Of a DNA stretch of 64,000 bases, positions 46,321-56,547 are shown piece by piece (positions within the stretch are counted from its first letter, which is position 1; each line of letters starts with the position of its first letter). This DNA is from Planctomycetota bacterium (lineage in GTDB: Bacteria > Planctomycetota > Phycisphaerae > UBA1845). Where the stretch lies: NCBI GenBank assembly GCA_038043285.1, contig JBBTCJ010000041.1:13826-77825 (forward strand), written 5' to 3'. The translations under genes and the position numbers were made by a program. Under the pieces are notes generated by a model, which saw only the letters and a list, made by a program, of their open reading frames with translations, searched no databases and was not told the DNA's origin.

Positions 46321-47184
46321 ATGACGGCACGTGCATACGCCGACGTCGTTCGCCCCGTTCGCCGAAGCATTCTGGCGGCGCCCTTCCTGCCGGCAATGCT
46401 TTTCGGATGTGGTACGCTGGTTCCGCCGGTTCCGGCGCCGATGTTCACTTCGCCGCTGGAGATCAACGGGAAACACGTCGGACCCGCGATCATCGACACC
46501 GGCGGCGGATACGAGATCATCCTCAGCGACGATTTCGGACTCGACGTCCTGGGAAAAGTCGAAGTGCTCGCCTTCAGCGGACGTGAATTCGTGGACGTGA
46601 CCGAGGGCTTCAACTTCGCCGTAGGCGGCGTCACCGGAAGCGCCGAGGGCGCGCTCGTGGGACTTTCAACCTGCCGCTGCAACGGCGTGGGGTTCATCTT
46701 CATGAAAAAGCTCGGCAAAGTCCTTGCGCTGGACTTCGCGACCATGTCGGTCGAGTTCATTGACGCCGTGCCGACGGATGCAACGAGGTTGGCCTTTCAG
46801 TCCCCACCACCGTCCCTGCCCGGCTTCGACAGCGCTTTCATCAACGTGCAAGTGACGGTCGACGGCGAGACCATCGACCTCCTGGGGCTGCTGGACACCG
46901 GGACCAACAGCAGCGTCATGCGTGACGGGCTGTTCTCGACCAAGCCTCGGTTTCTGCCCAACCGCCTGGACGTCCGCATCGCCGGCGACGACCTCCGCGA
47001 GATTCCGGTGAACGTCGGCCTGTTCGACACCGACGGACTGCCCGACGTCATCCTCGGAACGGATGTCATGCGCGCCTGGAGCAAACGTTGGTACTTCGAA
47101 TTCGGCGAGGACGGCGGAACGGTCGCGGCCATTCCGCACACGGAAGCCCAGACACCTCGTGCCCTATCTGATCTGTTTCGCTAA
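46321..47184 (+). CDS. lipoprotein with two retropepsin-like aspartic-protease half-domains (two DTG motifs)
   Basis: ATG 46321 gives '...AAPFLPAMLFGC', a lipobox. 'AIIDTGGGYEII' and 'GLLDTGTNSSVM' are two D-T-G catalytic-motif segments in a single 287-aa chain. Confidence 0.6.
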   Translation: MTARAYADVVRPVRRSILAAPFLPAMLFGCGTLVPPVPAPMFTSPLEINGKHVGPAIIDTGGGYEIILSDDFGLDVLGKVEVLAFSGREFVDVTEGFNFAVGGVTGSAEGALVGLSTCRCNGVGFIFMKKLGKVLALDFATMSVEFIDAVPTDATRLAFQSPPPSLPGFDSAFINVQVTVDGETIDLLGLLDTGTNSSVMRDGLFSTKPRFLPNRLDVRIAGDDLREIPVNVGLFDTDGLPDVILGTDVMRAWSKRWYFEFGEDGGTVAAIPHTEAQTPRALSDLFR

Positions 47185-47771
47185 GCGTCGCAACGCTCCC
47201 GCGCGCGATCATCCAGAACCCGCCAGCAGATGGAGTTCGGCTCAGCGGTGACCCCCACGACGTGCCCGTCGTGGTGGAAGTGCGACACGGTGAAGCGCCG
47301 ACCGCGAAACTCCATCTCCAGGCTGTCGCATTGCCCGACCTTCGCCAAGCGGCACTCCCCGAGGCCCGAGATTCCGACGCCGTTGGCTTTCAGCGTCGCC
47401 TCCTTCGCGGTCCACAGTCGAAAGAACCCCTCCCAGGTTTTCCCGCCAAGTTGCCCCCACTCCCAGCTCTCCGCAATCTCGTCCAGCATGGACTCTCGAC
47501 GCGGCGCGATCTTCTCGACGTCGACGCCGACAGGCGTGCGCGAAATGGCCGCCGCCGCCCACTCCCGCTTGTGCGAGATCGACCAACACCATCCCTGGTT
47601 GGGCTGGGGCACGGAATCTTCGTCCTGTCGCCAACCCTCCTCCGGCGCGCCGCATTCCCGGGCGCATCGTCGCAACGCCTTCCGGGCGAATTCACGCTGC
47701 AGCGCGACGCGATCCCTGGGAATCAGCCCAGTGCTGTCGGGCAATCGCAAGAACAGGACATGCACGTTCAC
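47181..47771 (-). CDS. Sfp-type 4'-phosphopantetheinyl transferase
   Basis: 'GVDVEKI' and '[12 protein letters not shown]' are PPTase motifs. I prefer GTG 47771 because it overlaps the upstream FabI-like stop as GTGA (47768-47771). The track start is TTG 47789. Confidence 0.75.
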
Positions 47772-53812: not shown

Positions 53813-54841
53813 TCAGGCGGGTACGGCCAGGCGACAACTCGGCTCCGAGGATTCCCGAAGCCACTGCGTCAAGCGATCCACGCCCTCGCTTGTCGAGATG
53901 CTCGGGCGATAGCCGAGGTCGGTCCTGGCTGCCTGGATGTCGAAATAGTGGGATTTTGCCAACTGGCAGGCGAGAAAGCGGGTCATTCGCGGCTCATGGC
54001 GAACGCCCAGCAGCAGGTAGACAGCTTCAAGGCAGGCGCCCAAGGCGAACGCCGGGCGGAACGAAAGCGTGTGATGAACTGGTTTCACTCCCACGACCCG
54101 TAGGATTCCGTTCAGCCAAGGCCACAGGCTGACTGGCTCGCCCTGGCTGATGAAGTACGCCTTTCCTCCGCAGGCGGCCTCCGGACCGACGGCATCGCCG
54201 GCAAGGACGTGCGCCTCCGCCGCATTGTCGATAAACGTAATGTCCACGAGATTCTTCCCGTTCCCGACCTGGCGAAGCTGCCCGGCCTTCGCCAAGGCGA
54301 TGACCCGCGGGATCAGGTGTGGGTCGCCCGGCCCCCAGATCAGGTGCGGCCTTAGCGCGACGGTACTCAATGCGGCACCGTGCGCCGCAAGGACGATTCG
54401 CTCCGCCGCCGCCTTGCTCCTCGGATACGCCGCGAGGTACTCCATCGGGTACGGTTGCGACTCGTTGACTCCGCACAATTCCTCCTGCCCGAACACCACG
54501 CTCGGCGAGCTGGTATACACAAGCTTCGGCACCCGCCCAGCGAAACACGCCTCGACGACGTTGCGCGTCCCCTCGACGTTGGTCCGCCAAAAATCGTCGG
54601 GCTTTCCCCAGATTCCGGTCAGGGCCGCGACGTGATAGACGATGTCGCACCCGCAACACGCTCGACGGACGACATCCGAATCCGCGACGTCGCCGCGCAC
54701 ACACTCCGCGCCGCCGGACTCCAACCACGGGTAGTGACGCCGCCCCAGCACGCGAACGGCGTCGCCGCGATCGAGCAGCATCTGGGCGATGCGTCCGCCG
54801 AGAAAACCGCCCCCGCCCGTCACCATTGCCTTTAGCGACAT
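53813..54841 (-). CDS. NAD(P)-dependent 3beta-HSD/epimerase-family reductase, OleD-like
   Basis: 'AMVTGGGGFLGGRIAQ' is a Rossmann motif. 'YPRSK' is the SDR Y-xxx-K pattern. 'VALRPHLIWGPGDPHLIPR', 'NLVDITFIDNAAEAH' and 'GKAYFISQGEP' resemble OleD-type reductases as I recall them. ATG 54841 overlaps the upstream stop by 10 nt (alternative ATG 54826). Confidence 0.75.
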   Translation of the reverse strand: MSLKAMVTGGGGFLGGRIAQMLLDRGDAVRVLGRRHYPWLESGGAECVRGDVADSDVVRRACCGCDIVYHVAALTGIWGKPDDFWRTNVEGTRNVVEACFAGRVPKLVYTSSPSVVFGQEELCGVNESQPYPMEYLAAYPRSKAAAERIVLAAHGAALSTVALRPHLIWGPGDPHLIPRVIALAKAGQLRQVGNGKNLVDITFIDNAAEAHVLAGDAVGPEAACGGKAYFISQGEPVSLWPWLNGILRVVGVKPVHHTLSFRPAFALGACLEAVYLLLGVRHEPRMTRFLACQLAKSHYFDIQAARTDLGYRPSISTSEGVDRLTQWLRESSEPSCRLAVPA

Positions 54842-56547
54842 TTCGTTAATGCCCACACGGCCAATGCTTCCCGGTTGATCTTCGCGTTGTGTCGCACGTC
54901 AACCGGTAGTCGGCGACGAAACAGCACCTGCCATATTCCCTTAGTATGCTCCGCGGCTTGAGCGAGTTGGCGCAGTTCGCTGGTCCACTGCTCACGCCGA
55001 CGGCCCGTCGGAACCCGCCCGGACCCAGGCTCGATCACGATGATCGGCGTCTGCGCTGTCGGTGGACCGATCCCCACCAGCGCTGACCGCCCCACCTCCG
55101 CGTGCTCGTTGAAGATCGCTTCACAGCATACGCTGAAGAGCGTTTGTTCGGCCGACACCCGGACGCGGTGAGCCTTGCGGCCACAGAACCAGAGGCGACC
55201 GTCGGCATCGAAATACCCGACGTCGCCCATGCGATGCCAGACGCGGCCGCCGTCCTGAATCTTGGCCGCACTTGTCGCCTGCGTCATGCCGAAATACGCT
55301 TTTGTCACCATCGGTCCGCTGACAACGATTTCTCCAATTTCCCCAGCGCCGACAAGAAGTTCGCTGGACCACTCGGCGATCGGGTCATCGCTGACGCGAA
55401 TGATGCGGACGTCGGTTCCCTCGTTCTTCCGCCCCACGCAGATGCCCAATCCGCGACGTGTCCGGGCGGCGGTATGGTCAATCACCTCTTTTCCGCTGAT
55501 CGACGAAACCGGCAGCGACTCCGTCGCGCCGTACGGAGTGTGAACGTCCGCCTCCGCCGCAAGGACCGCGCGAAGGTCGGCGATCAAACTTGGCGACACC
55601 GGGGCGCCGGCCACCAGGATTCGTTTGAGAGTCGGAAGCCTCACGCCCCTGTCCAGGCAATACCTCGCGACGCGTCTCCACAGCGCGGGCGAACCAAACG
55701 AACTCGTGGCCGCGTGTCGTTGAATCGCGTCGACAATTTTGGCCGGATCGGCGTGACCTGGGCGCGATGCGTCCATGTCGGGGATCACGGCCGTCATGCC
55801 CATCGCGACGCTGAAAAGCCCGAAGAGCGGAAAGGTCGGCAGGTCGATTTCGCCCGGCTCAATGCCGTAACGGGATTGGATCATCCGCACCTGCGCGCCG
55901 AACATCCCATGTTCGTAGACCACGCCCTTGGCTGGTCCCGTGCTCCCGCTGGTGAAGAGGATCGCAGCGGGGTCGTCGGGGCGGGTCCGCACGAGGGCGA
56001 AGGTCGAGGCCGCGCGGGAGGTCAACTCAGCCAGCGTCGGGCCGGCCCAGAACCAACGTCGCCCCACCGTGACCACCGCTTTCACGCTCTGAAACGGGCT
56101 TCGCCGAAGCACGCGAATCACATGGGCCAGTGGGATCCCGACGAACCCCTGGAGGTCCACCTGTTTCAGACATTCCAGCATCCGCCCGACGCCCATGCCC
56201 GGGTCGATCAGCACGGGAGCCGCACCGATCTTGAACAGGGCGAAAACCAGTCCGATGAACTCGACCCCCCTACGGACCATGAGCAGCACGCGCATGCCCG
56301 GCCTGAACCCGGCGTCCACCAACCCGTTCGCATACCGGTTCGTCAGGGTCTCCAGCTCGGCGAAGGTCACTGCCGACCGACCGGACCCTCGATGCCCACA
56401 GCCTTTCGCTTCACAAACGACGGCCAGGCGGCCCGGGGCTTCCTCCGCTCTCCGGGGGAGGTGCTCGGCGATGTTGAAGGGAGCATCGTGGGTGTCCCCA
56501 TTGCCGAGCCCGGCGCAATCGTTGGCGGCAGCGACAGAGGTTTTCAC
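54832..56547 (-). CDS. AMP-dependent synthetase, OleC-like (beta-lactone-synthetase-type adenylating enzyme)
   Basis: '[16 protein letters not shown]', '[11 protein letters not shown]', '[21 protein letters not shown]' and the C-terminal '[19 protein letters not shown]' resemble OleC-family proteins as I recall them. The start is uncertain. I chose GTG 56547 (AAGGA upstream), which gives an OleC-like length of ~571 aa. The maximal ORF runs to 56787. Confidence 0.7.
   Translation of the reverse strand: [571 protein letters not shown]

Follow-up and report, generated by a model that had tools for sequence, protein, structure and literature searches.

In this study we focus on a 64,000-nt stretch of DNA from a Planctomycetota bacterium of the class Phycisphaerae, referred to below as the window (G+C about 63%), and on a cluster of nine co-directional open reading frames (ORFs) on its minus strand, from 47181 to about 56547, in which homologues of the olefin biosynthesis proteins OleC and OleD are joined to proteins of fatty acid synthase (FAS) type. 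From ORF calls and translations, with Pfam and NCBIfam searches, the order from 5' to 3' is an OleC-like synthetase, an OleD-like reductase, a beta-ketoacyl-acyl carrier protein synthase (KS), an acyl carrier protein (ACP), two flavoenzymes of the CrtI superfamily, a FabZ-like dehydratase, a FabI-like enoyl reductase and a 4'-phosphopantetheinyl transferase (PPTase). The two flavoenzymes, A and B, are called CrtA and CrtB, labels coined here. The features of the cluster are as follows.

54832..56547, minus strand: OleC-like AMP-dependent synthetase (olefin beta-lactone synthetase family); Pfam AMP-binding, 2e-52
53813..54841, minus strand: OleD-like NAD(P)H-dependent 2-alkyl-3-oxoalkanoate reductase (3beta-HSD family); Pfam 3Beta_HSD, 2.2e-56
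52438..53676, minus strand: FabF-like beta-ketoacyl-ACP synthase with a Cys-His-His triad; Pfam ketoacyl-synt N and C domains (Gly restored)
52130..52390, minus strand: acyl carrier protein with a DSM phosphopantetheine attachment site; Pfam PP-binding
50663..52048, minus strand: CrtA, 461 aa; Pfam Amino_oxidase; crtI_fam (TIGR02734) 60.4 vs cutoff 238.1
49103..50557, minus strand: CrtB, 484 aa; Pfam Amino_oxidase; crtI_fam (TIGR02734) 88.9 vs cutoff 238.1
48630..49106, minus strand: FabZ-like 3-hydroxyacyl-ACP dehydratase; Pfam FabA, 9.6e-21
47768..48589, minus strand: FabI-like enoyl-ACP reductase, 273 aa from GTG 48589; Pfam adh_short_C2, 9.2e-62
47181..47771, minus strand: Sfp-type 4'-phosphopantetheinyl transferase; Pfam ACPS, 8.5e-11, and 4PPT_N

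An earlier note on this DNA had described nine minus-strand genes at 47181-56547, and all of them were found there. Both of the GTGA overlaps that it reported were verified in the sequence: at 49103-49106 the GTG start of the FabZ-like gene overlaps the stop of CrtB, and at 47768-47771 the GTG start of the PPTase gene (alternative start TTG 47789) overlaps the stop of the FabI-like gene. The OleC stop, TAA 54832-54834, lies inside the OleD start region as described, provided that OleD starts at ATG 54841 or GTG 54856; 54826 is a further alternative start. The start of the OleC-like gene is uncertain, and may be GTG 56547, a site further upstream, up to about 56706, as in the gene call of the twin assembly presented below (L084), or 56787, where the longest ORF begins. 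The start of the FabI-like gene was set by homology with L084 and with the Nitrospirales locus L023. Third-position GC bias is strong across the cluster, with a third-position G+C (GC3) of 0.78-0.84 in the eight genes other than the KS gene, all eight of which are intact. A convergent gene ending at 47184 bounds the cluster on one side and a divergent Peptidase_S13 gene on the other, and a promoter and terminator scan of 46800-57200 gave counts no higher than in shuffled sequence.

Families of the nine proteins

The cluster opens with one member each of the OleC and OleD families of the OleABCD pathway, known from Xanthomonas, Shewanella and Micrococcus and reported in Planctomycetes, Verrucomicrobia and Chloroflexi. 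The three OleC-like motifs quoted in the earlier note are all present in the translation, and the OleC-like protein passes the NF006754/PRK09274 model with 691.8 bits (cutoff 478). It fails the OleC equivalog models, with 590.7 vs 900 for NF045786 and 540.7 vs 850 for NF045785; the OleD-like protein, which carries GGGGFLGG and YPRSK, the glycine-rich NAD(P) motif and the YxxxK of the extended short-chain dehydrogenases/reductases, fails the OleD equivalogs NF042422 and NF042423 in the same manner (375.8 and 374.4 vs a cutoff of 580). Nevertheless, the OleC (605.2 and 569.3) and OleD (377.6 and 338.3) of L023, a locus that holds a complete oleABCD set, also score below these cutoffs. The thresholds thus appear clade-specific, apparently tuned to the Xanthomonas and Shewanella clades, and since the window proteins score nearly as those of L023 do, their genes can be regarded as orthologues of real pathway members. 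Moreover, the OleC-like protein is 50-53% identical to the OleC encoded beside oleA-oleB-oleD in the Nitrospirales loci L022-L024. NCBIfam scores and these identities therefore group the synthetase and the reductase with OleC and OleD, as had been proposed, and not with ordinary FadD enzymes or sugar epimerases. By its family, the OleC-like protein is a putative lactonising enzyme for 2-alkyl-3-hydroxy acids.

None of the five FAS-like proteins reaches the NCBIfam equivalog cutoffs for its housekeeping counterpart. The KS, with its glycine restored as explained below, reaches 298.6 vs 493.75 for fabF, and the ACP at most 36.8 bits in models whose cutoffs are at least 65. The FabZ-like protein falls just short in two fabZ models (110.7 vs 155.15 and 108.8 vs 113), and the best FabI model gives the FabI-like protein 191.3 vs 370, all FabI cutoffs being at least 299. 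The description of KS, ACP, FabZ, FabI and PPTase as a private set, already put forward for this DNA, is therefore fair. A PfaA model matches the KS weakly (77 bits vs a cutoff of 1010); all components of the cluster are single-domain proteins and the dehydratase is of the FabZ type.

The two flavoenzymes share 25% identity. All carotenoid equivalog models of NCBIfam are failed by both. The solved structures nearest to CrtA are carotene desaturases (E 3e-12 and 3e-8), and the solved CrtI and CrtD structures (4REP, 4DGK) match CrtA and CrtB at E 1e-7 to 3e-12. CrtA is 51-67% identical to its relatives in four phyla and CrtB 59-84% across loci. The CrtB family is compact, with 190 representatives at E<=1e-30 among 1.84 billion 50%-identity clusters, and stands sharply apart from carotenoid desaturases. 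In databases the homologues of both proteins are named 'phytoene desaturase family protein' or given generic oxidoreductase names (about 8,000 CrtA homologues were scored), and the carotenoid label on these entries is probably wrong. It is accordingly very improbable that CrtA and CrtB are carotenoid or isoprenoid desaturases in a cluster that makes a pigment or a polyene, for instance of aryl-polyene-like type. Such a function would agree with the name 'phytoene desaturase family protein' in the source annotation, and the FabZ-like gene also matches the ApeI-like and ApeP-like Pfam families. However, the crtI_fam scores of 88.9 and 60.4 are far under 238, the structural matches to CrtI and CrtD go no further than the E-values given above, and the cluster contains no phytoene synthase, prenyl genes, KS/chain-length factor pair, aryl starter ligase or other Ape genes. 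In addition, the possibly related phytoene-dehydrogenase-like enzymes from the type II FAS (FASII) clusters of anammox bacteria failed to complement crtI (Javidpour 2016, PMC4790861).

One feature that the earlier note did not report concerns the KS gene, in which an in-frame TGA at 52993-52995 (minus strand, KS codon 228) replaces a conserved KS glycine (RN*IVVAEGG in the window). L084 (ENA ERZ1300416 NODE_1461), an independent metagenome assembly with 99.92% identity over 17.8 kb, has GGA at codon 228, so that the stop is a single G-to-T difference and may be a base-call error of sequencing or a minor nonsense variant. L084 in turn is without 5 nt in the PPTase gene (window 47504-47512 vs L084 15188-15192), and its PPTase is called at only 102 aa; the two assemblies each carry a different lesion in the same operon, the coverage of L084 being low, about 6x according to the contig name. 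Recoding of TGA as glycine or selenocysteine was considered and rejected, since no second in-frame stop occurs in the cluster, the remaining genes have normal ends and L084 has GGA. The two different lesions, together with a related genome (L085) in which the OleC-like gene alone is left at the syntenic position, could indicate that this organism retains the cluster as a decaying remnant of pseudogenes. We regard this as improbable: L084, otherwise nearly identical, has a glycine codon at the site, the other eight genes are intact with a strong codon bias, and a sequencing error or a minor variant in the population could account for one G-to-T change.

Conservation of the core and its linkage to ole genes

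The same nine genes are found in the same order in other Phycisphaerae with 57-81% protein identity, including on the 5.67-Mb chromosome CP070744.1 and on a 2.67-Mb contig, and the divergent Peptidase_S13 gene is conserved beside these clusters too. A CrtA profile run on one genome per GTDB species found at least 585 confirmed stretches encoding a CrtA relative, and thirteen query proteins were mapped onto 83 loci, many of them truncated, with flanks viewed over about 10 kb. A core, KS-ACP-CrtA-CrtB-(FabG)-FabZ-FabI-(PPTase), keeps its order in Planctomycetota, in Verrucomicrobiota, where the carriers are Opitutae and include the complete genome of Oleiharenicola sp. Vm1, in Chloroflexota, where they are Dehalococcoidia, and in Nitrospirota. 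Its best-conserved members are CrtB, as given above, and KS (60-80% identity), and FabG is clustered with the core in three of the five taxonomic groups. The nine genes are thus co-conserved in relatives, a point on which the earlier note had made its proposal depend, and a core found in no fewer than 585 stretches from species-representative genomes is not the isolated oddity that a single window might have presented. In several Planctomycetaceae and Fuerstiella loci (L025, L030, L040, L041, L044, L046, L048 and similar) only KS, ACP and CrtA stand together, which means that the module is split, and CrtB, FabZ, FabI and the ole genes do not lie within 10 kb there.

The ole genes beside the core were identified by ORF calling in the related loci, followed by NCBIfam and tblastn, and their arrangement differs from one group to another.

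Nitrospirales: oleA-oleB-oleC-oleD-(B12-radical SAM in one locus)-KS-ACP-CrtA-CrtB-FabG-FabZ-FabI
Dehalococcoidia: oleA-KS-ACP-CrtA-CrtB-FabG-FabZ-FabI-PPTase
Opitutae: KS-ACP-CrtA-CrtB-FabZ-FabI-oleA-oleB
Some Planctomycetia: oleC-oleD-KS-...-FabI, then convergent oleA
Phycisphaerae (window): oleC-oleD-KS-...-FabI-PPTase

Of the 83 loci, 41 have one or more ole genes in their flanks (OleA in 30, OleB in 19, OleC in 14 and OleD in 16, with many loci truncated), and in two or more of the five groups each of the four ole genes adjoins the core. As this linkage recurs in lineage-specific arrangements, it suggests selection for linkage and functional coupling of the ole genes to the core, and not one inherited accident. 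The OleA-like proteins of the relatives pass NF006720/PRK09258 with 433-444 bits (cutoff 285). In the alignment they are invariant at the positions of the OleA catalytic residues Cys, His and Asn and of the OleA-specific Glu, which we take to be Cys143, His285, Asn315 and Glu117 in X. campestris numbering, and several of these proteins are named acyl-CoA:acyl-CoA alkyltransferase by JGI. The OleB-like proteins are haloalkane-dehalogenase-like hydrolases according to NCBIfam. In Opitutae, of which oleABCD is characteristic (PMC5673642), oleC and oleD are not near the cluster.

Two observations from these loci may be added. In L023 a B12-binding radical SAM gene (6792-8363) lies between oleD and KS, and this Nitrospirae locus is the sole related one that has such a gene; among other matches, its product matches TIGR04072 (rSAM_ladder_B12, 'lipid biosynthesis B12-binding/radical SAM protein') weakly, with 54.9 bits vs a cutoff of 360. 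We also considered the OleD-like protein as the missing FabG and the OleC-like protein as an acyl-ACP loader, and set both aside: core clusters without adjoining oleC and oleD exist, and clusters with a true FabG (L022-L024) still keep OleD.

A proposed pathway and its alternatives

We propose, with a probability of roughly 55%, that the operon is one lineage's form of a widespread composite in which the Ole head-to-head olefin pathway is combined with a dedicated type II secondary fatty acid synthase. The Sfp-type PPTase would activate the private ACP, on which the FabF-like KS, the FabZ-like dehydratase and the FabI-like reductase would elongate an acyl chain, with ketoreduction and malonyl loading presumably ensured by the housekeeping FabG and FabD here and ketoreduction by a clustered FabG in other phyla. 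CrtA and CrtB would create double bonds in the chain carried by the ACP, or shift their position, and would thus fill the slot taken by FabA-like dehydratase/isomerase domains in Pfa, the type I polyunsaturated fatty acid (PUFA) synthase. The unsaturated, probably polyunsaturated, chain would then be passed to OleA for the Claisen condensation of two chains. OleD would reduce the 2-alkyl-3-keto acid and OleC would close the beta-lactone, both being encoded in the window, and decarboxylation of this lactone by OleB would yield a long-chain, n-C31:9-type olefin. For oleA and oleB, a position in this genome beyond the window is predicted. The feeding of OleA by the module, the action of the flavoenzymes on acyl-ACP, their isomerase or desaturase chemistry and the product are four elements that we infer from gene families and gene neighbourhood.

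By analogy, two chemistries are plausible for the flavoenzymes. One is a redox-neutral double-bond isomerisation, with precedents within the fold family in CRTISO and in the FAD-dependent polyenoic fatty-acid isomerase. The other is a dehydrogenation beside an existing double bond, with UfaD as a precedent (PMC7380195). By pure inference, two ancient and always adjacent paralogues would fit two isomerisations, trans-2 to cis-3 and trans-2 to cis-2, as required for methylene-interrupted polyenes. In a more tentative extension of the proposal, which we would not expect to hold in full, the module could be a type II polyunsaturated-chain synthase in which CrtA and CrtB act as redox-neutral isomerases of these two kinds or as quinone-linked desaturases, and could constitute a Pfa-independent, possibly oxygen-independent source of n-C31:9-type precursors in Planctomycetota, Opitutae, Dehalococcoidia and Nitrospirales.

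Several points weigh against the composite pathway. The cluster has no thioesterase or acyl-ACP:CoA transferase for the hand-off of the chain to OleA, and the KS stop codon, if the base call is real, may leave this copy inactive. The chemistry given to CrtA and CrtB is wholly hypothetical, and an AlphaFold2 model of CrtA from a 12-sequence alignment was too poor for use (mean predicted local distance difference test score, pLDDT, of 57.9). To our knowledge, Dehalococcoidia and Nitrospirales are not known as olefin producers. Finally, in about 20 Phycisphaerae-like loci the flanks of the cluster, up to 10 kb, contain neither oleA nor oleB, and none of the top 120 matches of an OleA profile search is labelled Phycisphaerae; most of these matches are unlabelled, and those with a label are from Pirellulales, Nitrospirae or Thermoguttaceae. 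The presence of OleA and OleB in this lineage is therefore a prediction.

The earlier note had found no OleA, OleB, FabG or FabD in the window, and this holds for the 30 window ORFs scanned: with Pfam, none of the 20 flanking ORFs in 18621-63821 (the ORFs at 1-18600 lay outside the scan) is an OleA-type thiolase, an alpha/beta hydrolase, a FabG or a FabD. It had suggested a non-canonical pathway without OleA and OleB that may end in a beta-lactone, which the comparison with relatives does not support, as orthologous clusters carry OleA-like and OleB-like genes beside the same core. The absence of oleA and oleB from a 64-kb window is thus weak evidence for their absence from the genome; with ole genes scattered in sister lineages, the parsimonious reading is that they lie elsewhere in this genome. 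The gap would probably reflect gene dispersal in Phycisphaerae or the boundary of the window.

A beta-lactone endpoint is still a live but less likely rival. In a Phycisphaerae pathway truly devoid of OleA and OleB, the private KS would provide a 3-ketoacyl chain that OleD reduces and OleC lactonises or adenylates, to give a beta-lactone or a beta-hydroxy lipid and no olefin. The leading position of translationally coupled OleC and OleD genes in the Phycisphaerae operon is consistent with this, as are the lack of oleA and oleB within 10 kb in Phycisphaerae-like loci, the lack of Phycisphaerae among the top OleA matches, and the OleC/OleD homologues known to make beta-lactone natural products, according to work cited in a passage of PMC7064751. 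However, KS, ACP, CrtA, CrtB, FabZ and FabI are orthologous (44-70% identity) to those of clusters with oleA and oleB, and ole genes are scattered elsewhere too, oleA and oleB being at the cluster and oleC and oleD apart in Opitutae, and oleA being convergent and oleB apart in Planctomycetia. Moreover, the substrates of OleD and OleC are 2-alkyl-substituted acids made by OleA, which a FabF-type KS is not known to yield.

The conservation of the core also bears on another alternative, in which the module is a pathway for membrane fatty acids, e.g. an oxygen-independent unsaturated route replacing FabA/FabB, with its product going to phospholipids and the proximity of ole genes reflecting shared lipid regulation and not channelling. 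FabX of Helicobacter is a precedent for flavin-dependent synthesis of unsaturated fatty acids. The conservation of CrtB (59-84%) and KS (60-80%) across phyla is housekeeping-like, the CrtB family is compact, and many loci of Planctomycetaceae and Fuerstiella have KS-ACP-CrtA with no ole gene nearby. On the other hand, a private ACP and an Sfp-type PPTase are typical of secondary and not of primary lipid synthesis, all four ole genes adjoin the core in several phyla in differing arrangements, and the core-bearing taxa largely coincide with the known ole-bearing phyla (PMC7158056). We consider this alternative unlikely, though marginally less so than the beta-lactone endpoint, and retain the composite of Ole pathway and secondary synthase as the preferred reading.

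The remainder of the window contains a few other features. Beyond the divergent Peptidase_S13 gene lies a chaperone block (58700-63821, minus strand) with two Cpn60, DnaJ, GrpE and a Zn-ribbon protein, whose synteny is kept in L084 and L085. L085 (JGI 3300019487, a 227-kb contig) is Phycisphaerae-like; at 10001-11710 it keeps the OleC-like gene, the other eight genes being replaced by unrelated ones. Its upstream synteny is that of the window (Cpn60-Cpn10-Cpn60-DnaJ-GrpE-Zn ribbon-YacG-Peptidase_S13), and a Y1 transposase is nearby. Further away in the window, 21722-23251 (plus strand) encodes a second AMP-binding enzyme with an AMP-binding_C domain, about 26% identical to the OleC-like protein and apparently of the ordinary acyl-CoA ligase type. 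Two adjoining genes at 37094-37972 and 38012-39478 (plus strand) have Double-GTPase (DO-GTPase1/2) and GAP1-N2 domains and resemble pairs from conflict or defence-type systems. Four genes with coding-like codon bias, at 32019-34739, 24325-27330 and 42348-43556 (minus strand) and 46231-47184 (plus strand), encode proteins of 317-1001 aa with no Pfam match at E<=1e-4.

Relation to known systems and significance

The cluster resembles several known systems in part. Like OleABCD, the related clusters have adjoining OleA-like and OleB-like genes with their catalytic residues kept; unlike canonical ole operons, the window has only oleC and oleD, attached to a seven-gene FAS-like module that these operons lack. 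An association of ole genes with a lipid synthase is known for pfa, which occurs in tandem with ole and the PPTase gene pfaE, as in the pfaDABC-oleABCD-pfaE arrangement of Geobacter bemidjiensis, where Pfa supplies the 16:4 precursor of C31:9 (PMC4882568, PMC3098273). The n-C31:9 olefin is a characteristic neutral lipid of many planctomycetes (PMC3327967). The window cluster shares with pfa-ole a secondary lipid synthase that is linked to ole and has its own carrier protein and PPTase, and KS, dehydratase and enoyl reductase functions are present in both. It differs from Pfa in that its enzymes are discrete (type II), with no multidomain PfaA or PfaC, tandem ACPs or FabA-type dehydratase/isomerase; it has no acyltransferase and, in the window, no ketoreductase, and it has two flavoenzymes where Pfa sets double bonds with FabA-like domains.

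Phytoene-dehydrogenase-like genes have been described in FASII clusters of K. stuttgartiensis, D. psychrophila, Geobacter and Pelobacter, and an anaerobic route to PUFA was proposed from them (Rattray 2009, PMC2649909); D. psychrophila makes polyunsaturated hydrocarbons (PMC2649909). The likeness to the clusters of Kuenenia stuttgartiensis and Desulfotalea psychrophila lies in the clustering of amine-oxidase/CrtI-like flavoenzymes with fabF, acp and fabZ paralogues. Those clusters also contain radical SAM enzymes, several KS paralogues, a phenylacetyl-CoA ligase and a glycosyltransferase, whereas the window cluster has none of these; with Pfam and NCBIfam no radical SAM gene was found in it, which sets it apart from the anammox 'ladderane' FASII clusters. 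The first 130 residues of Kuste3336 and Kuste3607 match CrtB only over a FAD-binding segment of 46-55 residues (48-55% identity), and no orthology is claimed. A linkage to ole is described neither in PMC2649909 nor in PMC4790861.

UfaD of Rhodobacter sphaeroides, phytoene-dehydrogenase-like by annotation, is a proven fatty-acyl desaturase (PMC7380195). It resembles the activity considered here in being a flavoenzyme that desaturates an acyl chain beside an existing double bond, and is the experimental precedent of the superfamily on fatty acids. The comparison is by description only, and UfaD differs from the window enzymes in acting on a phospholipid-bound methylated 18:1, in apparently needing O2 and in not being clustered with KS, ACP or ole genes. 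CrtI, CrtD and CRTISO share the FAD-binding amine-oxidase fold family with CrtA and CrtB and include their best structural matches, but they are very distant, and the context here is one of fatty acids and not of isoprenoids. In the full-text literature, a coverage that leaves out most subscription-journal papers so that an earlier description is possible, we found no description of the combination of ole genes with KS, ACP, two CrtI-like flavoenzymes, FabZ and FabI. The nearest prior art is the 2009 proposal of PUFA synthesis by phytoene-dehydrogenase-like genes in FASII clusters.

The main interest of the locus lies in an uncharacterised type II synthase with flavoenzymes, which is widespread and tightly conserved and accompanies the Ole pathway in four phyla. 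For annotation, this concerns thousands of CrtA/CrtB-type entries that now carry 'phytoene desaturase family protein' or generic oxidoreductase names. As a genomic marker from which to predict that microbes of anoxic waters and sediments make olefins, the core would serve better than oleC alone, and it could provide a compact set of small discrete genes for the engineering of unsaturated hydrocarbons. If the module does feed OleA, a non-Pfa route to unsaturated precursors in ole-bearing bacteria would be explained, the 2009 proposal would gain an experimental footing, and the CrtI superfamily would gain a new reaction type.

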